DNA from: Minisyncoccota bacterium
GTDB lineage: Bacteria; Patescibacteriota; Minisyncoccia; Phycocordibacterales; UBA9973
Assembly: GCA_041664285.1 (NCBI GenBank)
Contig: JBAYLA010000001.1
Location: forward strand, 68,889-132,888
DNA length: 64,000 nt
Reading direction: 5' to 3'
The notes under the pieces are model-generated. The model was not told where the DNA came from, did no database searches, and was given only the letters and a program-made list of their open reading frames with translations. A program made the translations under genes and the position numbers. Numbering within the stretch: the first letter of the stretch is position 1; the number at the start of each line of letters is the position of its first letter. Below are positions 7,960 through 61,847 of this stretch, piece by piece.

Positions 7960-8571
7960 ATGTTAGGGTTTACAAAAAAGGAATTGGTGTTAATGAAGAA
8001 ATTAAATACACCAGCCAAGGTGCAGGACTTTTTGAACAAACTTCAGTTCAATTTCGAAGAAAAAGGGGAAACATTGAAATCTCCGATTTTAGCTCTAAAG
8101 GCACGACAAGCCCATTGTTTTGAAGGAGCGCTTCTGGGGGCTTATATATTGTCTCTGCAAGGTTTTACCCCCTATTTGATGCATTTAAAGGCCACTAAAG
8201 AGGATTTTGACCATGTGGTCGCTCCTTTTAAAGTAGAGAAATATTGGGGTGCTTTATCTAAGACTAATCATGCGGTTTTGCGTTACCGTGAGCCTATTTA
8301 TAGAAATATTCGCGAACTTGCTATGTCTTATTTTCATGAATATTTTTTAAATAATGGGGAAAAAACATTGAGACAGTATTCTGCACTTCTTAATTTAAAT
8401 ACTTTGAAAAAAAATTGGGGCATATCACCAAAAGATCTTTGGTCTATAGATAAAAAATTAGATAAAATACAACATTATAATATCGTGCCACAATCTTATA
8501 TCAAGAAACTCCGAAAATCAGACAAGGTAGAAATAAAAGCAGGGGAGATTACAGAGTTTAAAAAATACTAA
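7960..8571 (+). CDS. hypothetical protein
   Basis: 203-aa ORF whose 3' end overlaps the convergent gene by 14 nt. Confidence 0.35.
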   Translation: MLGFTKKELVLMKKLNTPAKVQDFLNKLQFNFEEKGETLKSPILALKARQAHCFEGALLGAYILSLQGFTPYLMHLKATKEDFDHVVAPFKVEKYWGALSKTNHAVLRYREPIYRNIRELAMSYFHEYFLNNGEKTLRQYSALLNLNTLKKNWGISPKDLWSIDKKLDKIQHYNIVPQSYIKKLRKSDKVEIKAGEITEFKKY

Positions 8572-9376
8572 AAATTTTATCCCAAAATCTTCTCCACCAA
8601 GTATTTTTTGTAGTTTCATTTTGTGCGGGAACAGAAGGAACAGAATTTGCAATTGATGTAGTATTTTTGTCTTTAATTTTGTTTATTTTTTTAGGTTGCT
8701 CTTTAGGGTTTGCAGGCAAGATATCTCCCCCTTCTTCTTCAAAAGTTGTATTTGAAGAAGAAGGGGGAGTAAGTGTTGGATAAACAAGCAAAGGGGAAAG
8801 AATAAAAGAAGTACATGGTTGGCCAGTGGTTATGCTAAATTTTTGTCCTTGTTCGCAGATAGTATTTAATATTATATATCCGCTACCTCCACTATTACTG
8901 TGGGTAGAGGGGGTTTCTGGCTCTGGTTCTGGTATTTTGTTTTCATCTCCAAAATACAAAACAACATTTTCTCCTCCAGATAAAATTTCCGAATCCATTC
9001 CTACGCTTGGGCTAACATTATTTACTTTGTATTGCCAATTATCACACAAATCGGATCCAGAGACGTTGATACATTTCAAATAAAAAGCTCCAAACATATC
9101 ATAATAAATCAAATTAGAGATATTAAAATCTCCACTCAAAGTGTCGGCTGTATTTACTATCGAGAGCACACTGTCGGCCTTTGTATCGTGAGGACTTCCG
9201 CTTGAGTCATTTATACTGATGGTACCAGCTCCGAGCAAGGGTATATTTCCGGAATAAACAACATCACCGTTATTTTTTACAGTTAAATTTACATTTATTC
9301 CATCAGCTAGAGCAAACTCACTTCCTCCTGTTAGTAATATTAAAGCAATCCAAACACTCATTAAAATTTTTTTCAT
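8558..9376 (-). CDS. secreted DUF4430-like (transcobalamin / intrinsic-factor beta-domain-like) protein with Pro/Ser/Thr linker
   Basis: Signal peptide. NLTVKNNGDVVYSG ... DNWQYKVNNVSPSVGMDSEILSGGENVVLYFG matches the DUF4430 pattern (W.Y.VNG...G....l.dGD.v.f.y). The C-terminal half is PEPEPETPS-rich. Confidence 0.5.
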   Translation of the reverse strand: MKKILMSVWIALILLTGGSEFALADGINVNLTVKNNGDVVYSGNIPLLGAGTISINDSSGSPHDTKADSVLSIVNTADTLSGDFNISNLIYYDMFGAFYLKCINVSGSDLCDNWQYKVNNVSPSVGMDSEILSGGENVVLYFGDENKIPEPEPETPSTHSNSGGSGYIILNTICEQGQKFSITTGQPCTSFILSPLLVYPTLTPPSSSNTTFEEEGGDILPANPKEQPKKINKIKDKNTTSIANSVPSVPAQNETTKNTWWRRFWDKIFSIF

Positions 9377-9389
9377 ATTTTAATTTAAA

Positions 9390-9580
9390 AATAAAAAAAC
9401 TCCTACCGAGAGGAGTCGACAAATCAAGACATTAAGACTTGATAATTCCTGCTCGGGACAAATAAAATGATTGGTATTCGGACTTGTTCCTCCAATTTTA
9501 GTTGGAAGGACTTACCGTAGCGGCACTGTACTGGAATTCCTGCCTGCGTAGGCGGGTCACCAGTTTCCCCAATCAATTCT
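9390..9580 (-). ncRNA. candidate cobalamin riboswitch with intrinsic terminator (expression platform) leading into the 8558..9376 gene
   Basis: GC-rich island in an AT-rich intergenic region. The minus-strand RNA reads GGGGAAACUGGUGA...GGAAUUCCAG...GUGCCGCUACGGUAAGUCC...AAGUCCGAAUACC. The closest fit to the remembered consensus is CCGCUACUGUGAG plus the terminal AGUCAGGAAACCUGCC. It ends with the terminator GACUCCUCUCGGUAGGAGUUUUUUU about 15 nt before the ATG. Confidence 0.5.
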
Positions 9581-9592
9581 TATAATTTTCAA

Positions 9593-10084
9593 ATGAACTC
9601 TCTTAGTATATACTTACCTCATATTATGTCAAAGGAAGATGTGGATACTAAAAAAATAGCCAGAGAGAAGCTGGTAAAAATAATGGTTTTTGGAACTTTT
9701 GACGGATTGCATCCTGGGCATATTAATTTTTTCCAACAGGCAAAAAATCTTTCTAAAAGTTCATTTTTAATTGTTTCAATTGCTAGAGATAAAAATATAA
9801 TAAAAATTAAAGGGAAAAAATCAACACTTTCTGAAAACGAAAGATTTAATTTAGTAAAACAAAATAAGTTTATAGATAAGGTTGTTCTGGGAGGGAAGGT
9901 CAAATATTTACCCCATATTATAAAAGAAAAACCAGATATTATTGCCCTTGGTTATGATCAAAAAGATTATGTTGAAAATTTAAAAAAAGATCTTAAAAAA
10001 AATGATATTTTAATAAAAATTATACGTTTAAAGCCTTATAAGCAAAAAATTTTCAAAAATAGCTTACTAAAATCAAAAAAATAA
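9593..10084 (+). CDS. cytidylyltransferase-like nucleotidyltransferase (FAD synthetase N-domain / TagD-like)
   Basis: GTFDGLHPGHINFF is the (H/T)xGH nucleotidyltransferase motif. Confidence 0.6.
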   Translation: MNSLSIYLPHIMSKEDVDTKKIAREKLVKIMVFGTFDGLHPGHINFFQQAKNLSKSSFLIVSIARDKNIIKIKGKKSTLSENERFNLVKQNKFIDKVVLGGKVKYLPHIIKEKPDIIALGYDQKDYVENLKKDLKKNDILIKIIRLKPYKQKIFKNSLLKSKK

Positions 10085-15374: not shown

Positions 15375-15863
15375 ATGAAACAAAAAAAATTTATAGAAAA
15401 AATAATTACTGGTATAGGATCAGTGCCTTCACTTATTGCACATACATTTTTGTTTGGTTTAGCTTTTATTTTGTCTTTTTATCATGTTATTTCTTGGGAT
15501 GTAATGCTCCTTACTCTAACAACAATTGTGTCATTAGAGGCGATTTATTTAGCTATATTTATTCAAATGTCTGTAAACAAACAAACACAAGAGCTTGCAG
15601 AAGTCAGTGAGGACGTCGATGAAATTCAAAAAGATGTTGATGAGATTCAAGAGGACGTCGATGAAATTCAAAAAGATGTTGATGAGATTCAAGAGGACGT
15701 CGATGAAATTCAAAAAGATGTTGATGAGATTCAAGAGGACGTCGAAGAAATTACTGAAGAAACCGAAGAAGAACGCATAAAAGCCAGGTCAATTAATATT
15801 GAACAGTTGGCACAAGATTTAAGGAAAATACTTACGGACCTAGAACAATTAAAAAACAAATAG
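15375..15863 (+). CDS. DUF1003-like membrane protein with acidic tandem-repeat tail
   Basis: Two N-terminal TM helices followed by repeats of (E)DVDEIQKDVDEIQ. Confidence 0.5.
   Translation: MKQKKFIEKIITGIGSVPSLIAHTFLFGLAFILSFYHVISWDVMLLTLTTIVSLEAIYLAIFIQMSVNKQTQELAEVSEDVDEIQKDVDEIQEDVDEIQKDVDEIQEDVDEIQKDVDEIQEDVEEITEETEEERIKARSINIEQLAQDLRKILTDLEQLKNK
15609..15752 (+). repeat. 42-nt in-frame tandem repeat, 3.4 copies
   Basis: gaggacgtcgatgaaattcaaaaagatgttgatgagattcaa repeated exactly three times, then a diverged partial copy. Confidence 0.85.
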
Positions 15864-20710: not shown

Positions 20711-20872
20711 TTAATTTAAAAGTGAAAAAGTAATACCTAAATAATATGGCCAGAGAATTAATGCCAATACTCCTTTCCAAAAAGTTAAATGTAAAAAACC
20801 TATTGTAAAAAGCCAAGCTGCAAACCAAAAACCTCCGGCAAACATATGATTTTCAATTTTAATTTTTTGCAT
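20711..20872 (-). CDS. small membrane protein, paralog of 20887..21072 (not in the ORF table, 53 aa)
   Basis: Translation MQKIKIENHMFAGGFWFAAWLFTIGFLHLTFWKGVLALILWPYYLGITFSLLN. It shares FWKGVLALI(I/L)WPYYLG with its neighbour. Confidence 0.4.
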   Translation of the reverse strand: MQKIKIENHMFAGGFWFAAWLFTIGFLHLTFWKGVLALILWPYYLGITFSLLN

Positions 20873-20886
20873 AACTTGTTATTTTT

Positions 20887-21072
20887 TTATTTTGATTCTT
20901 CTTTTTGGCTATATTCTTGGTGAAATTTTACTCCCAAATAATAAGGCCAAATTATTAAGGCTAGAACTCCTTTCCAAAAGGAAAGCTTCAAATAACCTAT
21001 CGTAAAAAGCCAACCGATAAACCATATTGAGCAAAAGAAACCCTCTTGATTGTTGATAATTATTTTATCCAT
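20887..21072 (-). CDS. small membrane protein (61 aa), tandem paralog
   Basis: MDKIIINNQEGFFCSIWFIGWLFTIGYLKLSFWKGVLALIIWPYYLGVKF... Confidence 0.45.
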   Translation of the reverse strand: MDKIIINNQEGFFCSIWFIGWLFTIGYLKLSFWKGVLALIIWPYYLGVKFHQEYSQKEESK

Positions 21073-21121: not shown

Positions 21122-22507
21122 TTAAAGTTTATCCCACAAAACAATAAAACTGAATACACCAAAGAATATAAAAATAATTCCAATTATAATTTTTCTAATT
21201 AAACTAGGACGGAAAACCTTAGGAAGTTTTTTTAGATTAAGCCAAGAAACAAGAGCCAAATGCACAAACATAGCAAAAGCATTTATTACCGCACCTAAAA
21301 CTATCAAAGTTTTAGGCTCGTATATATTAAATAAAAATAAAGTTATACCAAAAATAATTTGTCCCCACACAAAACTATAGTAAATTTTTGAAAGATTAAT
21401 TTTTGCATCACTTTTTCCATGAACTTTTCTAATGGCAAAATTTTCTGACATAATGCGAGAAGTAGAATCCATTATCCCTAATTGAGTTTGAAATAACATA
21501 ATAGAAACTGCCACCAGGAATATTATGCCTATAACTGGAAAAATAATTTCTCCAATAACCCTTCCTTCATTTATCACAAAATTAATCCCTTGTGTATTTC
21601 CAGCTAGCCCATGAGTAGTCGCATAAGATAAAAGCATAAGAAAAACCATTGAAATAATTCCTAAAAACCAAAAGATAAAAGCATGCTCAATACTAATTAA
21701 TTTCCACCATTTTTTAAAACGAATAACATCCTCTGGTGTGGCTGCACAATCTGTACCATCTAGTACGATTTCTTTTTCTTCTTTTTTCGCAAACAAGCTA
21801 GAAATTTTTTGAGAATAAATTCCCATACCATAACCTTTTTCTTTTATATAAATTGATTGAGTTAAATTTAAATTTCCACCAGCACCAGAATAAGCAAAAG
21901 CAGCGAGAAAAGTTGCGATACTTATTCCTTCTGGTAAAAACCAATAACCTTCTCCTTTACCAAATATTCCATATAATAATGCTGACCAATCAGTTTTTGT
22001 GGCTAAAAATAGAGCTAATAAAAATATAAAAGGAACACCAATTGAAAGAATAACTTTTGTAATTTTTTCCATCATTCCATAAACAGTTTTGCCCATACTT
22101 AAAATTAATCCGATAATTAATAAAAACAAAATAGCAATCCATTTAAAATTAGTAATTCCCAAGATACTGGCCATTACTTGGGCCGAAGCAGCAATAATTC
22201 CAGGAAGTCCAAAACCAATGAAAGTAGAAACAATAAACCAATAAACTGCACCCTTCCACAATTTGTAAATTCCAACAAAAACACTCTCACCCTTTACTAG
22301 TGCATAGCGCTCAATCTCCATATTCATAAAGTACTGAAAGGTAATCCCAAGAATTGCTCCCCATGCAATACCAAGTCCATAATTAGCAGTTAGGTAGGGC
22401 CACAGAATAACTTCTCCAGAACCTAAACCAAGTGCAAGAATAACAAAACTTGGTCCAATAAGTTTTTTAAGAGATACAGGTTCTGGAAATAATTTTTTTT
22501 CTTTCAT
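21122..22507 (-). CDS. polytopic membrane transporter, NRAMP-like (putative divalent-metal transporter)
   Basis: 461 aa with 11-12 TM helices. N-terminal LGSGEVILWPYLTANYGLGIAWGAILGITFQYFMNMEIER resembles the MntH pattern GPG...Y.DPGN...GA..GY.LLW. Confidence 0.45.
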   Translation of the reverse strand: MKEKKLFPEPVSLKKLIGPSFVILALGLGSGEVILWPYLTANYGLGIAWGAILGITFQYFMNMEIERYALVKGESVFVGIYKLWKGAVYWFIVSTFIGFGLPGIIAASAQVMASILGITNFKWIAILFLLIIGLILSMGKTVYGMMEKITKVILSIGVPFIFLLALFLATKTDWSALLYGIFGKGEGYWFLPEGISIATFLAAFAYSGAGGNLNLTQSIYIKEKGYGMGIYSQKISSLFAKKEEKEIVLDGTDCAATPEDVIRFKKWWKLISIEHAFIFWFLGIISMVFLMLLSYATTHGLAGNTQGINFVINEGRVIGEIIFPVIGIIFLVAVSIMLFQTQLGIMDSTSRIMSENFAIRKVHGKSDAKINLSKIYYSFVWGQIIFGITLFLFNIYEPKTLIVLGAVINAFAMFVHLALVSWLNLKKLPKVFRPSLIRKIIIGIIFIFFGVFSFIVLWDKL

Positions 22508-25478: not shown

Positions 25479-26002
25479 TTAAGTAGTTTGCAAACTATCA
25501 TTATATAAAATTTTAAGCTTCTCTAACCCTCGATGTAACTGCACGGCTACGGTGGCTTTGGAAGTTCCGGTTATTAATGATATTTCTTTTATTGATAAAT
25601 CTTGCACATATTTCATGCGCATTACTTTTTTATACATTTCAGGAAGACGCTCGATTAATAAAAGTGCAACCTTGCCGTCTAAAACATTAAATAATCTTTT
25701 AGGATCTTCTGCTTCTGGTTCGAAGCCTTTCTCCATCATTACATCGAGAGAGGTTGTTTTACGTTTTCGATATTCATCTACAATAAGATTATTTAGTACA
25801 TGATAAAGAAAAGCTCTCATTATTTCTATTTTCCCTCCTTTGACCAGATAAATCCAAGTTTTCATGAAAGTATGTTGTACTAAGTCTTCTCCTGTTTCAT
25901 GGTTACTTAGTTTAAAATAGGCACGAGCATTTAAGCCTTTTTCAAAGTTATTGTGGGCTTTAGTCAGTATCCCGTCAAGTCTTTTTTCTCTTTCGGGGTC
26001 AT
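25479..26002 (-). CDS. ECF-type RNA polymerase sigma factor, interrupted by an apparent frameshift in an A6 run
   Basis: Region 4 HTH VQDLSIKEISLITGTSKATVAVQLHRGLEKLK. Region 2 (GEDLVQHTFMKTW) continues upstream in the same frame with no ATG. The ATG at 26002 (MTPKEKKDLTGY*) is in the adjacent frame, and the two join if the gagAAAAAAgac run (25982-25987) had one more A. Confidence 0.6.
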
Positions 26003-26317
26003 TATATTGAAGCCGTTTGGGGCTCTATTATGTTACCTCTTTATTACAAGAGATATTTTAATAATGGAAATATTCAGTTTTTATAGGGGCAGTAGGGGGA
26101 ATCCGTTTTTGAGATAGTTACAGAGGAATTACGCTTGGGCACTAGATAGTTGTGTTTTTCAAGTTAATTAACTTTAGCACGTATGTAGTCTAATAGCTAG
26201 TCGTAACAATTAGTATTTATGAACGGCATTATAGTTAAGAAAAAGAATAAGGTCGATATTATTCAGGAAACAGTGACGAGAGGTAAATAAAGTTTATTAA
26301 ATAAAATAAAAAATAAT

Positions 26318-32838: not shown

Positions 32839-33037
32839 ATGATTTTTATTTTAAGTTAATAATAAAAATTATATCATAGGTTCGACACTAAATATAAATT
32901 AAAAATTTTGCAATCAACGGATTTACAAATTATTGACAATTAAAAATAATTGTGTTAAAGTTAATCGAAGTTTGTCAGGAGTTGTCCTTTAATAATAAGT
33001 TTTTAATTAAATAAAAATAGCTAAGAAGGAGATAATA

Positions 33038-33751
33038 ATGAAGGGAGCTAGATTGAGACTTAAAGACCACGGAGATTTCTCGCCATATTTAAAGGAAATT
33101 TGTCAATTTCCTCTTTTATCGAGAGATGAAGAAACCGCACTGGCTAAGCATAAAGAAAAAGGAAAAGAAGAAGCCCAGGAGAAAATGACAAAAGCCAATC
33201 TTAAGTTGGTTGTAAGTATCGCAAAGAAATACAAAAATCGAGGATTACAATTCTTCGATTTGGTCCAAGAAGGTAATATCGGCTTGATGAAAGCTGTTGA
33301 AAAATTTGATTGGACGAAAGGATACAAATTTTCTACCTATGCGGTGTGGTGGATTCGGCAGGCCATCCAAAAGGCATTAGCCGATCAATCAAGAACTGTT
33401 AGAGTTCCAGTGCATATGGTTGAAAAGATTAATTGTCTAATTCGTGCTTCTCGTGATTTTGTCCAGGAGTTTGGTCGTGAGCCAACTCCCGAAGAAATCG
33501 CCAAGAAGACGGAATATTCACTAGAAAAAGTGATGGAGATATTAAAAATCTCCAAAGGAACTATTTCTTTTGAGACTCCCATAGGGGAAGAAGAGGACTT
33601 AACCTTAGGAGACTTTGTGGAAGACAAAGAAAGTGGAGATCCGCTTTCTTTGTCTGTCAATGTTGATTTAGAGGAAATTGTTAGAAAAACTCTTTCAACA
33701 TTGAGGACGCCGGAGGAAAAAGTTATTAGACTTCGTTTTGGCATTTGCTAG
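33038..33751 (+). CDS. sigma-70 family sigma factor (regions 1.2-3 and start of 4.1) terminating before the region 4.2 HTH
   Basis: Region 2 [13 protein letters not shown]...[18 protein letters not shown]...[13 protein letters not shown] and region 3 [12 protein letters not shown]. The ORF ends ...[12 protein letters not shown] where homologs continue into the -35-binding helix-turn-helix. A hairpin terminator follows. Confidence 0.65.
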
Positions 33752-33786
33752 GACGAAAGCAAAGAAAGAAAGTTAAACCATCAAAC

Positions 33787-33824
33787 GAGAGCCTACGACT
33801 GAAAAAGCGTAGGCTCTCTTTTAC
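33787..33824 (+). terminator. Rho-independent terminator
   Basis: gagagcctacg-actgaaaaag-cgtaggctctctttt. Confidence 0.55.
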
Positions 33825-33920
33825 ATAAAATCAGAATTTACTAATTTTTTCTACAATATTCCACTAGATAGAGGATGCTAGAACTTGTTTGTTTAAGAGA
33901 AGAATAAGAAAGATTTATAT

Positions 33921-35256: not shown

Positions 35257-35311
35257 AAAAAAATTATATCATAGGCTCGAACTTCTACTAAGACAGGGGA
35301 AACCTAATTGA

Positions 35312-39080: not shown

Positions 39081-40295
39081 ATGGTCGCGCTTAAATTTGC
39101 CCGCCGTGGCGGGAAGAAAAAAGTAATAAAGAAAGTTAAAGCTGTTAAAAAAACAGTAGTAAAAAAAATAGTTAAAAAAGCTACAAAGAAAGTAGTAAAA
39201 AAAGTTGCGAAGAAAAAAGTTGTAAAAAAAATCCCATACCCGATTAAAAAATTTAAGGGTAATCCAATTGCTGGTCCAGTTCCTAATTCATTTTGGCAAT
39301 CAGAAGCGGTATTTAATCCAGGGGCGGTAGTGCACGATGGACGTATACATCTTTTTTATAGAGCGCTTGGAGGTGATGGTCTGTCGCGTATTGGTTATAC
39401 TTCAAGCAAAGATGGTATTCATTTTGATGAAAGACTTTCTTATCCAGTTTTTGTGGCAGAAAATATAAACGAAGCACAAGACCATTATCCATATACTTCT
39501 CCAGCTCGTCTTGTTTATAATCCTGTACTTTACGCTTCTGGTGGTGGGTGGGGTGGATGCGAAGATCCACGAGCAGTAAAAATTGATGGCCGAATATATC
39601 TTACCTTCAATATGTTTAATGGGTGGGAATCTATGCGAGTAGCTTTTACTTCAATTGACGGGAAAGATCTATTGGAAAAAAAATGGAACTGGAGTCAATT
39701 TGCTTATTTGTCTCGTCCTGGTGATAGGCAAAAAAATTGGGTTTTATTTCCAGAAAAATTTAATGGTAAGTTTGCGCTTTTTCATAATCTGGATCTGGGA
39801 GATTCTTCTCGAGTGCACATTAAGTATTTGGATGAGCTTAATATGTACAAAACACCAACAAGACAAACAGGAGCACCAGACGTACAGATTTTACCAGATC
39901 ACGTAGTTGCTTGGCATAATCGTACTCGTAGTGCCTCAGCGCCACCAATAAAAACTAAAGATGGCTGGCTTTTATTTTATCATGCGATGGATAAGGATGA
40001 CCCAAATCGTTACAAGGTTGGAGCACTTTTACTTGATCTTAAAGATCCAACAAAAATTCTTTATCGAGCTTCTCGTCCGATTTTAGAACCAGATGAGTGG
40101 TATGAAAATGATTATAAACCAGGAGTGGTGTATGCTAGTGGTGCGGTCGTGAAAGACGGAACATTGTTTCTTTATTATGGCGGGGGAGACAAACATATCG
40201 CTGTAGCATATGTTAATTTAAAAGAATTTCTTAATAAATTAAAGAGTGGTGGAAATGCGGTTTTTTCAAAGAAAAAGGCTGCTTTGAAAATATAA
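39081..40295 (+). CDS. GH130 family glycoside phosphorylase / DUF377 (beta-1,4-mannoside phosphorylase-like) with Lys/Val-rich N-terminal tail
   Basis: FNPGAVVHDGRIHLFYRALG, GCEDPR, APPIKTKDGWLLFYHA and YYGGGD. The first 55 aa are a KKVxKKV repeat. Confidence 0.7.
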   Translation: MVALKFARRGGKKKVIKKVKAVKKTVVKKIVKKATKKVVKKVAKKKVVKKIPYPIKKFKGNPIAGPVPNSFWQSEAVFNPGAVVHDGRIHLFYRALGGDGLSRIGYTSSKDGIHFDERLSYPVFVAENINEAQDHYPYTSPARLVYNPVLYASGGGWGGCEDPRAVKIDGRIYLTFNMFNGWESMRVAFTSIDGKDLLEKKWNWSQFAYLSRPGDRQKNWVLFPEKFNGKFALFHNLDLGDSSRVHIKYLDELNMYKTPTRQTGAPDVQILPDHVVAWHNRTRSASAPPIKTKDGWLLFYHAMDKDDPNRYKVGALLLDLKDPTKILYRASRPILEPDEWYENDYKPGVVYASGAVVKDGTLFLYYGGGDKHIAVAYVNLKEFLNKLKSGGNAVFSKKKAALKI

Positions 40296-40299
40296 TTTT

Positions 40300-41262
40300 A
40301 TGTACGTAGTAAAAAGATCTCATCGCAATCCAATTTTTGTTCCATATAAAGACCATTACTGGGAGGATTTTGCCACTTTTAATATGAGTGTCATTAAAAA
40401 AGGTAAAATGTTATATGGCGCATATCGTGCTATTGGCGCATCCGATATATTACGTACACCACAGCAGATTTCCGTTATAGGTTTGGCGAAGAAAGGTGAA
40501 GGTCATAACTATTTTAAAAATGCTGTGCCTTTTATCGTCCCAGAAGAAGAATGGGAAAAATACGGATGTGAAGATCCTAGGATTACTTTTTTTGAAGGTA
40601 ATTATTATATATTTTATACTGCACTTTCAAAATATCCATTTGAAGCTAGTGGAATTAAGGTTGCCGTAGCAATTTCAAAAGATTTTAAAAATATTAATGA
40701 ACGTCATTTAATAACACCTTTCAATGCTAAGGCAATGACACTTTTTCCTGAGCGTATTAATGGAAAAATTACAGTAATCGTGACTGTAAATACAGATATG
40801 CCTCCGTCGAAAATTGCCGTAGCACAAGTTGATAAGATAGAATAGTTATGGAATCAAAAATTTTGGGAAAAATGGTATGCAAAAATAGACGAGCACGCTG
40901 TCGATTTTAAAAGATTTCCATCTGACCATGCTGAAATTGGTGCTCAACCTCTTAAAACTCGCTATGGTTGGCTTCTTCTTTACTCCCATATCCAAAATTA
41001 TTTCTCTGGAGGGAATAATTCTAATCGTATATTTGGGATTGAAGCAGTTCTACTTGATTTAAATAATCCACTTAAAATTATCGGTCGGACGAGCGGTCCT
41101 ATTTTAGTACCTCGAGAGTCATATGAACTTTTAGGCCATGTTCCTAATATAGTTTTTCCTTCAGGCGCAATTTTAGAAAAAGATACACTTTTTATATATT
41201 ATGGAGCAGCAGATACTACGACCTGTTTGGCTCATGTAAATTTAACTGATCTTATAGGAACG
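40300..41262 (+). pseudogene. GH130 paralog 2, interrupted by an in-frame TAG at 40843-40845 and lacking its own stop
   Basis: The N-half is HRNPIFVP...GCEDPRITFFEGNYYIFYTA. After the TAG the same frame continues with WYAKIDEH...PLKTRYGWLLLYSH...IFIYYGAADTT, the C-half of the same domain. It then runs directly into the third GH130 copy. Confidence 0.55.
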
Positions 41263-42255
41263 ATGAGACCAGAAACAAGTGCCCGATGGCATTTTAATCG
41301 TTCTTTAAAGAATCCAATTATTTTACCAGACAAAACTCATCCGTGGGAAGCTAAAGCTACTTTTAATCCAGCAGCCTTGAGGATAGGAGAAACAATCCAT
41401 ATATTATATCGAGCACTTTCGGAAGATAATACATCTACTCTTGGCTATGCATCAACTAAAGATGGTTTTACTATTGACGAAAGAAGTTCTTCGCCTATTT
41501 ATGTTCCAAGAGAAGATTTTGAGTTAAAAAAAATTGCCAATGGAAATTCGGGTTGTGAAGATCCGCGATTAACGAAAATAGGGAGTACCATTTATATGTG
41601 CTACACGGCCTTTGATGGTATTGGTCCGCCACGAGTTGCTGTTACTTCTATCACAGAGAAAAATTTCTTATCAAAAAATTGGCAGTGGGAAAAACCGGTG
41701 ATCATAACGCCAGCTGGCTTTGATGATAAAGATACTTGTATTTTTTCCGAAAAAACCAATGGAAAATATTTTATTTTGCACAGAGTAGGTAATGAAATTT
41801 GTGGAGATTACATAAAAACACTTAATTTTAAAACCGAAACCATCCGAAAGTGTATTAGAATTATAGGACCTAGAATAAATAAATGGGATAATGCAAAAGT
41901 TGGGATTTCTGCGCCACCCATAAAAACAAAATATGGATGGTTGCTTCTTTATCATGGTATTTCAAAAAGTAGTAATACTTATCGTCTCGGAGCTGTCTTG
42001 CTTGATCTTAATGATCCATCTACTGTTCTTTCCCGTACTTCTGATCCCATATTTGAACCAGAAGAATCATATGAAAAAATTGGAATAATTAATAATGTTG
42101 TTTTTCCGTGCGGAATGGTTGTTAAACCTGCCAGCCGTGGTGGGGACGATTTGCTTTATATATATTATGGTGGAGCGGATACTGTTGTTGGAGTTGCGAC
42201 CATAGAACTTGATATTCTACTTCGAGCTCTTACTCGAGATATTAAGAAAACATAA
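41263..42255 (+). CDS. GH130 family glycoside phosphorylase, paralog 3 (start set at ATG 41263)
   Basis: FNPAALRIGETIHILYRALS, GCEDPR, APPIKTKYGWLLLYHG and YYGGADT. The ORF-table start at 41227 is a TTG inside the preceding domain's C-terminus. Confidence 0.65.
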   Translation: MRPETSARWHFNRSLKNPIILPDKTHPWEAKATFNPAALRIGETIHILYRALSEDNTSTLGYASTKDGFTIDERSSSPIYVPREDFELKKIANGNSGCEDPRLTKIGSTIYMCYTAFDGIGPPRVAVTSITEKNFLSKNWQWEKPVIITPAGFDDKDTCIFSEKTNGKYFILHRVGNEICGDYIKTLNFKTETIRKCIRIIGPRINKWDNAKVGISAPPIKTKYGWLLLYHGISKSSNTYRLGAVLLDLNDPSTVLSRTSDPIFEPEESYEKIGIINNVVFPCGMVVKPASRGGDDLLYIYYGGADTVVGVATIELDILLRALTRDIKKT

Positions 42256-46346: not shown

Positions 46347-47039
46347 CTAAGACGTGACGTCTTCACTCTGTTTATAATCGCCTGGCCATATATCTATTTG
46401 ATTTATTGGTAGTAATCGCAAGAAAGCTTTCCCTGCAAAAAATTCTCTTTTTACTGGTCCCCAAGCCCTAGAATCAGAACTACCACTTCTGTTGTCACCC
46501 ATTACAAAATATTCATCACTTTTTAGCACAATGTGTATATCGTTGTTTGCAACATTTTTTACAAAGGGTTGTTCTAGTTTGAAACCTTCAGGATGTGCAG
46601 AATTTGTGATAGTTACATCATTACCTTTGATATCAACTGTTTCGTTTGGTAAACCAATAACACGTTTTATAAAAAACCTTCCAGGATCAAAAAATCTCAA
46701 TAAGAAATTTCTTTTAGGATTATTTTTAGGATCGCCTGGATATTGAAATACCACAACATCATCTCTTTGTGGATTACCTAATTCATAAGATAGCTCATCT
46801 ACTATTATATAATCTCCGTTTTCAAAAGTGGGAATCATAGAAGGACCTGAAACTATAAATGGATCTGCGATTAGCCAACGGATAAGAAAAACTATAATTA
46901 AAGCTATAAATGCAAAACGTGCAAGCTCCCAAAATGATTGGGATTTAGTCTTTATTTGTTCCATATTTATAATAATAGCACATAATGTCCTTGACAATAT
47001 AGAATAATTTGTTTTGTAATATATAAAAAATATATACAA
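46347..47039 (-). CDS. lepB: signal peptidase I
   Basis: VSGPSMIPTF (Ser box), VMGDNRSGSSDSR (box E) and GKAF. Confidence 0.85.
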   Translation of the reverse strand: MYIFFIYYKTNYSILSRTLCAIIINMEQIKTKSQSFWELARFAFIALIIVFLIRWLIADPFIVSGPSMIPTFENGDYIIVDELSYELGNPQRDDVVVFQYPGDPKNNPKRNFLLRFFDPGRFFIKRVIGLPNETVDIKGNDVTITNSAHPEGFKLEQPFVKNVANNDIHIVLKSDEYFVMGDNRSGSSDSRAWGPVKREFFAGKAFLRLLPINQIDIWPGDYKQSEDVTS

Positions 47040-47052
47040 TTAATTTTTTTTT

Positions 47053-47122
47053 GGTACAGAATTTTTGAAGCTTAAAAATTCTTGAAGTTCTCGGCTCGTC
47101 AGCCTCGAAACCCCGCAAAAAG
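47053..47122. repeat. about 70-nt conserved element, copy 1 (second copy at 61638..61708)
   Basis: ggtacagaatttttgaagcttaaaaattcttgaagttctcggctcgtcagcctcgaaaccccgcaaaaag. About 85% identical to copy 2 after two single-base indels. Confidence 0.5.
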
Positions 47123-47156
47123 TTATTGTATATATTTTTTAATTCTGTGTTATTAT

Positions 47157-59786: not shown

Positions 59787-61613
59787 ATGGATTTAAAACA
59801 CATTAGAAATTTTTCAATCATTGCTCATATAGACCATGGTAAAAGTACTTTGGCGGATAGAATGCTTGAGATTACCCACACAATAGAAACTCGTAAAATG
59901 CGAGATCAAGTATTGGATTCTATGGACCTTGAACGTGAAAGAGGAATTACCATTAAAATGCAACCTGTAAGAATGGAATACGAATTTAATGGAGAAAAAT
60001 ATATTTTAAATCTTATCGATACTCCGGGGCATATAGACTTTTCTTATGAGGTTTCTCGAGCTTTAAAGGCTGTAGAAGGCTCTATTTTGCTTGTAGACTC
60101 AACTCAGGGGGTACAAGCACAGACGCTTACAACACTCGCTATGGCACGCAGTAGTGGTCTTAAAATCATTCCTGTGCTATCTAAGATCGATTCTCCTTTG
60201 GCTAGGGTGGAAGAAATAAAAGAAGAAGTTGTAAATCTTTTGAATTGTGATCCAGATGAAATTTTACTAGTTTCTGGGCGAACAGGTGAAGGAGTATCTA
60301 AACTTTTACAGGAAGTTATAAAACAAGTACCAGAACCAAAAGAAACATGCTCACAAAAGGAAAATGAAATGGGTCAAGGCACTAGTAGCTTACGTGCATT
60401 AGTATTTGATTTTAAATATTCAAATCATCGAGGAGTAATAGTTTTTGTGCGGGTGTTTGATGGGAAAGTTAGGAAGGGCGATAATTTAGTTTTTGCAGTT
60501 TCTGGCGAGAAATTCATTGCTCTTGAAGTGGGAACTTTTTCTCCAGAAGAAACTTCTCGCGACTTCCTTTCCTCTGGAGAGACAGGGTATATCGTGACTG
60601 GTATCAAGAAACCTGGTATTGCCTCGGTCGGAGATACTATCACCATGTTCAAAAATCCATTACCAGCTTTTCCAGGTTATATGCAACCGATGCCAGTAGT
60701 CTGGGCTTCTGTTTTTCCAGAAGATGCAGATGATTTTGCGGAATTAAAACTTGCTTTAGGAAAATTAAAACTTTCCGACTCAGCTTTTTCTTATGAAGAA
60801 GAATCAAGTGGATCTTTAGGTCGGGGATTTAGGTGTGGGTTTTTAGGAATGCTTCATTTAGAAATTATTACCGAGAGGTTGAAGCGCGAATTTAATTTGG
60901 AATTGGTTATTACCACACCTTCCATCACTTATGAGGTTTTATTAAAAAATGGGAAAAAAGAAAAAGTTTACTCTCCATTTCATTTCCCTGATGATGGTCT
61001 AATAGAGAATGTTTTTGAGCCTTGGGTAAACTTGAAGATTATTACTCCTGTTCAATATGTAGGGAACGTTATGCAACTTCTTTTTGATCACGAGGGAGAG
61101 GTGGGTGATACAGAGAATTTTGGAGATAGTCGTTCTACTATTTCTGTGAAAATGCCCCTTCGAGAGCTGATGCGAAATTTTTTCGATGAATTGAAAAGTG
61201 TTTCTTCTGGTTATGCTTCTATCTCTTATGAAATAGGGGAATTACGGGAGGCCAATGTTACCAGACTTGATTTGCTAGTAGCGGATGAAGTGGTGCCGGC
61301 TTTTTCTCGGGTGGTGGCTAAAAAAAGAGCCGAAGTTGAAGCAGAGAATGCAGTTTTAAAATTGGACGAATTATTACCGAGACAAATGTTCACTTTAAAA
61401 ATCCAAGGTCGTGCACTTGGACGTATTATTTCTTCTCGCACGAAATCCGGTATGAAAAAGGATGTGACTCAGCATATGTACGGAGGTGACATCACCCGTA
61501 AAATGAAACTTCGAGAAAAGCAGAAAAAAGGAAAGAAAAAGATGAAGGAAAGAGGTAGAGTAAATATTCCTCAAGATGTATTTTTGAAAATGATGCGTGC
61601 TGGAGATAAATAG
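59787..61613 (+). CDS. lepA: elongation factor 4
   Basis: IRNFSIIAHIDHGKSTLADR, DTPGHIDF and the LepA-specific C-terminal domain. Confidence 0.9.
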   Translation: MDLKHIRNFSIIAHIDHGKSTLADRMLEITHTIETRKMRDQVLDSMDLERERGITIKMQPVRMEYEFNGEKYILNLIDTPGHIDFSYEVSRALKAVEGSILLVDSTQGVQAQTLTTLAMARSSGLKIIPVLSKIDSPLARVEEIKEEVVNLLNCDPDEILLVSGRTGEGVSKLLQEVIKQVPEPKETCSQKENEMGQGTSSLRALVFDFKYSNHRGVIVFVRVFDGKVRKGDNLVFAVSGEKFIALEVGTFSPEETSRDFLSSGETGYIVTGIKKPGIASVGDTITMFKNPLPAFPGYMQPMPVVWASVFPEDADDFAELKLALGKLKLSDSAFSYEEESSGSLGRGFRCGFLGMLHLEIITERLKREFNLELVITTPSITYEVLLKNGKKEKVYSPFHFPDDGLIENVFEPWVNLKIITPVQYVGNVMQLLFDHEGEVGDTENFGDSRSTISVKMPLRELMRNFFDELKSVSSGYASISYEIGELREANVTRLDLLVADEVVPAFSRVVAKKRAEVEAENAVLKLDELLPRQMFTLKIQGRALGRIISSRTKSGMKKDVTQHMYGGDITRKMKLREKQKKGKKKMKERGRVNIPQDVFLKMMRAGDK

Positions 61614-61620
61614 GGTAAAT

Positions 61621-61719
61621 AAAAAAACACCTTTTTAGGGTACAGATTTTTTGAAGCTTAAAAAATCCTGAAGTTTGCTCGCCGACGCTCGCAAAACCCC
61701 CAAAAAAGGTGTTTTTTTA
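61621..61719. repeat. copy 2 of the ~70-nt element, here bounded by perfect 16-nt inverted repeats
   Basis: aaaaaaacaccttttt ... aaaaaaggtgttttttt enclose gggtacagattttttgaagcttaaaaaatcctgaagtttgctcgccgacgctcgcaaaaccccc. Confidence 0.55.
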
Positions 61720-61847
61720 TTTACCTAAAAATCGGAGAGTAAAGCAAGATCATACTGATAATAATTAGCACACTGACTACTGCCCAAGTGATTTGTATTT
61801 TCTTTTGATGTTTTTTATTAAAAAGCATACAATAAGTATAACACAAA

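Follow-up and report, generated by a model that had tools for sequence, protein, structure and literature searches.

P0001 is the 237-residue product of an RpoD-like sigma factor gene in a 64-kb window (the whole stretch of DNA that was analyzed) of a Paceibacterota metagenome-assembled genome (MAG) contig. Statements about what the host genome lacks cover this window. Primary-type sigma factors are usually defined in part by region 4.2, which recognizes the -35 element, contacts the beta flap, and is bound by many activators and anti-sigma factors. P0001 ends immediately before it. On balance, P0001 appears to be a working sigma factor of RpoD descent in which region 4.2, as well as region 1.1, is naturally missing, and which initiates without -35 recognition. 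It would bind core RNA polymerase through regions 2 and 3 and the retained region 4.1 helices, melt the -10 element with its intact region 2.3/2.4, and initiate at -35-independent TGnTATAAT promoters, which appear to dominate in the window and may often be leaderless. A naturally region-4-less sigma was one of the options raised by an earlier sequence-only reading of this locus, and it is the one that the evidence favors, more precisely as a 4.2-less sigma.

P0001 contains regions 1.2, 2, and 3, each recognized by its Pfam family, and the WWIRQAI motif, in which W104, W105, and Q108 are invariant in the alignment; these parts had been called intact, and they are. Its region 2, which serves core binding, -10 recognition, and melting, assigns it to the sigma-70 family. 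Judged from the sequence, it shows the group 1 features of regions 1.2 and 3, while regions 1.1 and 4.2 are missing and the RpoD equivalog cut-off is not reached. Specifically, the RpoD equivalog models are its top NCBIfam matches, yet each scores below the cut-off (NF004208, 350.7 bits vs. 555; TIGR02393, 277.6 bits vs. 354). Pfam gives no match in P0001 to region 1.1 (PF03979), with only 16 residues preceding region 1.2, and no match to region 4 (PF04545). Identity to SigA/RpoD is 56–62% across regions 1.2 to 4.1, viral relatives share only 34–46%, and in Foldseek searches the model of P0001 matches SigA/RpoD chains in holoenzyme structures.

The end of the protein can be placed precisely on known sigma factors. 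Residues 44–236 align to E. coli sigma70 373–565, and residues 14–236 to B. subtilis SigA 102–324 of 371 (PDB sequences). Because the alignment ends at SigA 324 of 371, about 47 C-terminal residues, the region 4.2 helix-turn-helix, are absent. The C-terminus reads RLRFGIC, followed by TAG; it thus corresponds to sigma70 I565 plus one Cys. Pfam and the PDB-sequence alignments bear out the earlier statement that the open reading frame (ORF) stops at this point, before region 4.2. In the AlphaFold model (mean predicted local distance difference test score 72), the sigma-2 and sigma-3 domains are confident and the 3.2 linker (residues 174–209) is disordered. Two helices, residues 204–219 and 224–234, come next, and therefore both helices of region 4.1 are kept in the model. 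The sequence-only reading was right about the first of these helices but not in taking it as the limit.

P0001 has the residues for melting and the 3.2 finger, and H126 and E129 occupy the positions of E. coli H455 and E458, region 3.0 residues linked to TG recognition. The protein is also substituted at several near-invariant positions, including the equivalents of T440, R441, S517–H518 in the finger, and R554. Within the coding region, positions 33622–33655 hold a 16-nt inverted repeat with 94% complementarity, which by eye is only partly kept in the closest related gene (contig L001).

Three assemblies or more contain exactly this 237-residue protein, on a 203-kb NCBI MAG contig, a 134.6-kb ENA contig, and a 5–10 kb contig. 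Its GenBank record derives from a ‘Candidatus Paceibacterota bacterium’ MAG. Since the exact product recurs in these assemblies and the stop codon sits well within the long contigs, the assembly break that had been considered as an explanation is rejected.

P0004 is the closest relative of P0001. It is a 238-residue protein with 69% identity, encoded within two short contigs, L001 (ENA ERZ27249449 k141_1242061) and L002 (JGI), both of which break near the 5′ end of the gene and hold at most 19 nt upstream of it. P0004 likewise ends in RLRFGIC, with TGT in place of TGC as a synonymous Cys codon and TAA in place of TAG as the stop. The ortholog alignment that had been proposed as a check thus yields a protein ending at the same residue, not a full-length one. 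Identity between the two is spread across all regions, 4.1 included (22/32), and the genes differ by 0.21 nonsynonymous substitutions per nonsynonymous site (dN) and 1.41 synonymous substitutions per synonymous site (dS), a dN/dS of 0.15. The shared end point together with this ratio indicates that the truncation is older than the split between P0001 and P0004, and that purifying selection has acted on the shortened protein from then on. The pseudogene option is therefore very unlikely. P0001 and P0004 likely belong to two related organisms, the alternative being two paralogues in one genome. Both lineages occur in ENA assembly ERZ27249449, P0001 as L086 (k141_1450224) and P0004 as L001.

The truncated family is very small. 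Relatives were searched with a word index (5.8 billion sequences), a P0001+P0004 profile, and an exhaustive HMMER scan that covered 1.84 billion cluster representatives, and these word-index, profile, and HMMER searches found no member beyond P0001, P0004, and a sister, P0126, among about 15 billion proteins in total. P0001 and P0004 score 505–510 bits in the profile search, and the next matches score 335 bits. All top alignments of the exhaustive scan stop at query residue 236. When the C-terminal tails of the top 150 representatives were inspected, P0126 was the only one in which the absence of region 4.2 was not explained by a frameshift or a contig end. P0088, P0150, P0163, P0229, P0233, and many JGI partial genes were rejected as region-4-less relatives, because each is a long-read gene with a frameshift or is cut short by the end of a contig; P0002 and P0003 were rejected as chimeric short contigs.

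P0126 is a 566-residue protein (locus L084, 571–2271) that diverges from all canonical sigmas directly past RLRFGI. It continues for 37 unrelated residues before a stop and a hairpin. In a neighbor-joining tree of 146 sequences, it is sister to P0001+P0004, which sit on a long branch, and the three proteins have seven rare residues in common (E48, L114, S118, Y160, V194, S206, and D210). This suggests one older loss of region 4.2 common to all three; with three sequences, convergence is also possible. P0126 carries an orphan N-terminal extension of 290 residues, basic and then Pro-rich, with no Pfam or PDB match, no database homologue, and no counterpart in the window. One segment of the extension resembles a sigma-4/LuxR-type helix-turn-helix by eye only and is treated as no more than a lead.

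No region 4.2 is encoded downstream of the stop codon in any frame, as had been stated earlier, nor anywhere else in the 64 kb, by tblastn with three group-1 region-4 peptides. A search of genome contigs with P0001 returned only generic Firmicutes rpoD. The window holds one other sigma gene, of the extracytoplasmic function (ECF) type and with a region 4, located 7 kb from the truncated gene; no further region-4-like ORF was found in the window. The ECF-type gene scores 48.2 and 57.2 bits against the sigma70-ECF superfamily model TIGR02937 (cut-off 42.9). Its called product (25479–25865, minus strand) is a 128-residue protein that begins at the ATG at 25865, inside region 2, and contains Sigma70_r4_2 (E 7.5e-14).

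The 5′ end of this ECF-type gene is irregular. Upstream of the called start, 53 in-frame codons supply the initial half of an ECF region 2 (...GEDLVQHTFMKTW...) but contain no ATG, GTG, or TTG; with them included, Pfam recognizes Sigma70_r2 (E 1.4e-5). A nearby ATG at 26002 is out of frame with these codons and meets a stop after 12 codons (MTPKEKKDLTGY-stop); an A6G run is found between the two. The sequence of the locus is identical in three assemblies, ENA and Logan among them. The gene may be damaged, may depend on a frameshift for its expression, or may be expressed as an N-terminally shortened protein that starts at the internal ATG. The 128-residue protein has its own 4.1-like helix (PEMYKKVMRMKYVQ), and BLASTP finds no similarity of it to group-1 region 4. 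The separate region-4 ORF that the sequence-only reading had considered is thus formally present, but it is of ECF type, with its own region 2 and 4.1-like helix, and was rejected as the detached region 4.2 of an RpoD-like sigma.

The promoters of the window have the features expected of a sigma factor that does not read -35 boxes. In a crude set of 68 ORFs, TGnTAnnnT occurs 4.4 times per kb upstream on the sense strand, compared with 1.6 on the antisense strand and 1.3–2.0 in coding DNA. Strong TGnTATAAT-type sites, defined as at least 5/6 matches to TATAAT plus TGn, precede genes in 26 cases, and nine of these end 6–7 nt before the start codon. This placement implies leaderless mRNAs, which would then be widespread in this Paceibacterota genome. 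Examples of TATAAT-type -10 boxes, mostly with TGn, that end 6–7 nt before the start codon precede the gene starts at 1827, 6940, 9593, 36215, and 51014 on the plus strand and at 22507, 24070, 35256, 50969, and 56432 on the minus strand. The -35 position carries little signal. The best TTGACA match with a 16–18 nt spacer averages 3.0/6, vs. 2.1–2.8 at control offsets; the aligned -35 columns show weak T-richness and no G or C signal; and -35/-10-type sites number 10 sense vs. 13 antisense, with no sense excess. The earlier description of local promoters as extended -10 with a weak -35 therefore holds in the window, and the recognizable promoter features suit a 4.2-less sigma. The exception is the sigma gene’s own TTGACA.

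The sigma gene is monocistronic: a promoter-like site and a terminator hairpin of its own flank it, and its downstream neighbor differs between the window and L001. According to a consensus scan, its candidate promoter combines a perfect -35, TGn, and a 4/6 -10 and ends 76 nt before the ATG. The next gene follows the stop codon at a distance of about 170 nt. The neighbors are accessory genes of the families alpha/beta hydrolase, Bact_hydrolase, DUF6326, HAD, ice-binding-like, and PAS, and the flanks also hold housekeeping genes such as tRNA-Asn and dnaE. The GC content at third codon positions (GC3) of the sigma gene is 0.35, second highest of 39 genes (mean 0.24, standard deviation 0.04). In L001, GC3 is 0.38 for the sigma gene vs. 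0.19 for a neighboring 163-residue ORF (ORF163). The higher GC3 of the sigma genes could reflect horizontal origin or codon selection.

The DNA after the stop codon is conserved well above the level of synonymous sites. Block 1, from the stop codon to AATCAGAATTTA (33752–33840), is identical to L001 (719–803) at 72 of 85 aligned bases, compared with 29 of 61 four-fold degenerate sites in the sigma gene (Fisher p = 3e-6). Its 13 mismatches are distributed 3/4/6 over codon positions, and therefore block 1 is not coding. It contains a hairpin with arms at 33787–33797 and 33808–33818 (11-bp stem, 10-nt loop) and TTTT at 33819–33822. The terminator hairpin recognized earlier is thus confirmed, with a stem of 11 bp rather than the 10 bp then given. 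Because its loop exceeds 8 nt, the hairpin is not reported by the consensus terminator scan, which does not detect longer loops. The A-rich tract, hairpin, and T-run fit a bidirectional terminator for convergent genes, and about 20 bases past the T-run are likewise conserved with L001. Block 1 probably comprises an intrinsic terminator, which may act in both directions, and some further element.

A second block lies downstream of the first, and in L001 ORF163, which has no Pfam match at E <= 0.01, is inserted between the two. Blocks 1 and 2 are 85–90% identical between lineages whose synonymous sites are saturated. Rfam finds nothing in the region after the sigma stop. No copies of either block occur elsewhere in the window, the DNA downstream of P0126 shows no similarity to them, and a search of metagenome and viral DNA for the block 1 pattern returned only the contig already known. 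Recoding or readthrough was considered, as the zero frame is partly open in L001, with TGA aligned to TGG; it was rejected in favor of a nucleotide-level element, given the 3/4/6 mismatches and conservation above that of synonymous sites. Pyrrolysine at the sigma stop is excluded by the TAA stop of L001. A dif or att site in block 1 was also rejected: there is no dif-type inverted pair by eye, and a 9-nt direct repeat (TGCTAGGAC/TGCTAGAAC) is at chance level.

Several observations count against a functional 4.2-less sigma factor. Deletion of region 4.2 in E. coli lowers initiation efficiency and raises early pausing (PMC7948647), and by analogy such a sigma may be a poor initiator. P0004 carries Gln at the H455-equivalent position. 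The perfect TTGACA at 17 nt in the sigma gene’s own candidate promoter is a hint that the cell has a sigma that reads -35 boxes, and from its accessory neighborhood and GC3 the gene may be an acquired accessory gene. The clade is also tiny, with two close lineages and one sister in the protein space searched. The TTGACA, the accessory neighbors, the GC3, and the lack of region 1.1 speak in favor of a canonical second sigma elsewhere; the chief counterargument is that every recognizable promoter feature in the window suits a 4.2-less sigma. That P0001 is instead the sole RpoD-type sigma of its lineage, carrying out basal transcription without a -35 domain from extended -10, often leaderless promoters and with the 3′ blocks as a dedicated regulatory RNA or DNA element, is conceivable but doubtful. 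The same perfect -35/TGn promoter would be readable by a canonical RpoD encoded elsewhere, beside which P0001 could serve as a regulatory competitor that binds core, initiates poorly, and acts as a brake or decoy. Its accessory-gene surroundings, atypical GC3, missing region 1.1 (as in non-essential group-2 sigmas), and the crippled initiation of E. coli 4.2 deletions (PMC7948647) are in keeping with such a role. A core-binding decoy would, however, have no need of the melting residues, the TG-linked residues of region 3.0, and the 3.2 finger, which are under purifying selection, and the promoters of the window fit a 4.2-less sigma, making a pure competitor unlikely.

In the model, the retained 4.1 helical hairpin cannot form a sigma-4 domain alone, as expected if P0001 were one half of a two-piece sigma in which a 4.2 fragment or an unrelated helix-turn-helix protein provides -35 or flap binding in trans, comparable to B. 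subtilis SigO–RsoA or T4 gp33+gp55. The extension of P0126, with its helix-turn-helix-like segment seen by eye, and the 128-residue region-4 protein 7 kb away would be in keeping with this reading, but the former lacks Pfam and PDB matches and homologues, and the latter is of ECF type, has its own 4.1-like helix together with half of a region 2, and does not resemble group-1 region 4 in BLASTP. With no region 4.2 fragment in 64 kb, a monocistronic sigma gene, and downstream neighbors that differ between two lineages, a two-piece sigma is quite improbable. The conserved Cys exactly at the break, the strongly conserved non-coding DNA after the stop, and the ORF inserted between the blocks in one lineage invite the idea of a split gene that is rejoined by sigK/skin-type excision, an intron, translational bypassing, or a split intein at the terminal Cys. 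No second exon or gene half lies within 30 kb on either side, though, and the junction sequence is not repeated; Pfam scans reveal no recombinase among the annotated ORFs of the window, Rfam reports no intron, only about 170 nt lie before the next gene, a single residue cannot be an N-intein, and the flanks hold the housekeeping genes named above. A rejoined gene is thus very unlikely. Fragmented rpoD genes are common in metagenome assemblies (e.g., P0088, P0150, and P0163), and the neighboring ECF-type sigma gene has a disrupted 5′ end, both of which lend some color to a pseudogene, a recent truncation, or an assembly or sequencing artifact. Such an origin is highly improbable given the identical product in several assemblies, the end point held in common at 69% identity with a dN/dS of 0.15, and the ordered Shine-Dalgarno sequence, ORF, and terminator at the locus.

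Table 1. Coordinates of the truncated sigma gene, its parts, and associated features in the 64-kb window.
Feature	Coordinates	Strand	Basis
Neighboring ECF-type sigma gene, containing regions 2 and 4	25479..26024	-	Pfam, TIGR02937
Candidate leaderless TGATATAAT promoters	32848-32856 and 35266-35274	-	TGnTATAAT-type sites
Promoter-like site of the sigma gene: TTGACA, 17 nt, TGt-TAAAGT	32933..32961	+	Consensus scan match only
Shine-Dalgarno sequence AAGGAG, ATG 6 nt on	33026..33031	+	Read from sequence
Truncated RpoD-like sigma gene (P0001), 237 residues + TAG, = GenBank MFA6353430.1	33038..33751	+	ORF call, database identity
Region 1.2, residues 17-45	33086..33172	+	Pfam PF00140 (Sigma70_r1_2), E 9e-8
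Region 2, residues 52-120	33191..33397	+	Pfam PF04542 (Sigma70_r2), E 5e-23; confident helices in model
Region 3, residues 129-202	33422..33643	+	Pfam PF04539 (Sigma70_r3), E 2e-24
Residual region 4.1, helices at residues 204-219 and 224-234, ending at the E. coli I565 equivalent	33647..33739	+	Model, PDB-sequence alignment
Conserved terminal Cys codon and stop, TGC TAG (TGT TAA in L001/L002)	33746..33751	+	Sequence comparison
Conserved non-coding block 1: A-rich tract, hairpin, TTTT, then TACATAAAATCAGAATTTA	33752..33840	+	Comparison with L001
Conserved non-coding block 2	33860..33890	.	28/31 identical to L001 1348-1378

The window contains additional elements. An element of about 110 nt is present in two plus-strand copies (61613–61726 and 47030–47135) with the core GGTACAGAwTTTTTGAAGCTTAAAAAwTCyTGAAGTT...AAACCCC. 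Its inner hairpin and long closing stem differ between the copies with pairing kept (fold z-scores -7.9 and -4.1); it has no Rfam family, only generic hairpin matches, and may be an unclassified small RNA or a repeat resembling a miniature inverted-repeat transposable element. A cobalamin riboswitch (RF00174, 36.2 bits vs. a gathering score of 31.5) lies at 9452–9618 on the minus strand, and the ORF downstream of it (8558–9376, minus strand) encodes 272 residues with no Pfam match. ORF 15375–15863 contains seven in-register tandem copies at 15588–15773, spaced 21 nt from start to start, and its coiled-coil-like product has weak DUF948-type Pfam matches. Three adjacent GH130 (mannooligosaccharide phosphorylase-like) paralogues at 39081–42255 have an 89-nt block in common, and the middle one is short (181 residues). 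Lastly, a 92-nt direct repeat with 76% identity (20736–20827 and 20933–21024) lies between two minus-strand ORFs.

P0001 resembles several known systems and differs from each. Among the group 1/2 sigmas RpoD, SigA, and RpoS, its best matches are RpoD/SigA, but it lacks regions 4.2 and 1.1. T4 gp55 is a sigma-family protein without a -35-binding domain that uses a -10-like element alone and needs gp33 and the sliding clamp. P0001 is comparable to gp55 in lacking a -35-binding domain, but gp55 has a region-2-like core only, whereas P0001, which has no known co-activator, retains regions 1.2, 2, 3, and 4.1 and is about 60% identical to RpoD across them. In B. subtilis, sigK is split by the skin element: the chromosomal copy stops mid-protein, and a recombinase unites it with the C-terminal half, tens of kb distant. 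By contrast, the 64 kb here showed neither a second half nor a recombinase or a repeated junction. Unlike SigO–RsoA, P0001 has no adjacent or co-transcribed conserved partner gene, as far as can be compared with the at most 19 nt upstream held by L001/L002.

The closest experimental parallel is engineered E. coli sigma70. Truncations 1–553 (lacking region 4.2) and 1–529 (lacking region 4) are inactive on lacUV5 but still active, at a lower level, on galP1cons, an extended -10 promoter, and they pause more in early initiation (PMC7948647). P0001 similarly has lost the -35-binding helix-turn-helix and kept regions 2–3, and the 1–553 protein also keeps the 4.1 helix. Unlike these truncations, P0001 is natural and selected (dN/dS 0.15), lacks region 1.1, is substituted at near-invariant positions, and ends at the 565 equivalent. 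In reduced genomes, parts of the core subunits for -35 and UP-element use are lost, and reliance on -10 or extended -10 elements is predicted; loss of the alpha C-terminal domain is reported for Parcubacteria (PMC8321222). Those cases concern the core subunits, whereas here sigma region 4.2 itself is lost, a loss that is not described in that paper.

If P0001 is indeed a natural, selected RpoD-like sigma without region 4.2, evolution has made use of the minimal extended -10 mode known from the laboratory. It would also provide a ready-made system for studying how the loss of region 4.2 is compensated. If P0001 were the only housekeeping sigma of its host, it would redefine the minimal promoter-recognition apparatus of bacteria in the candidate phyla radiation.

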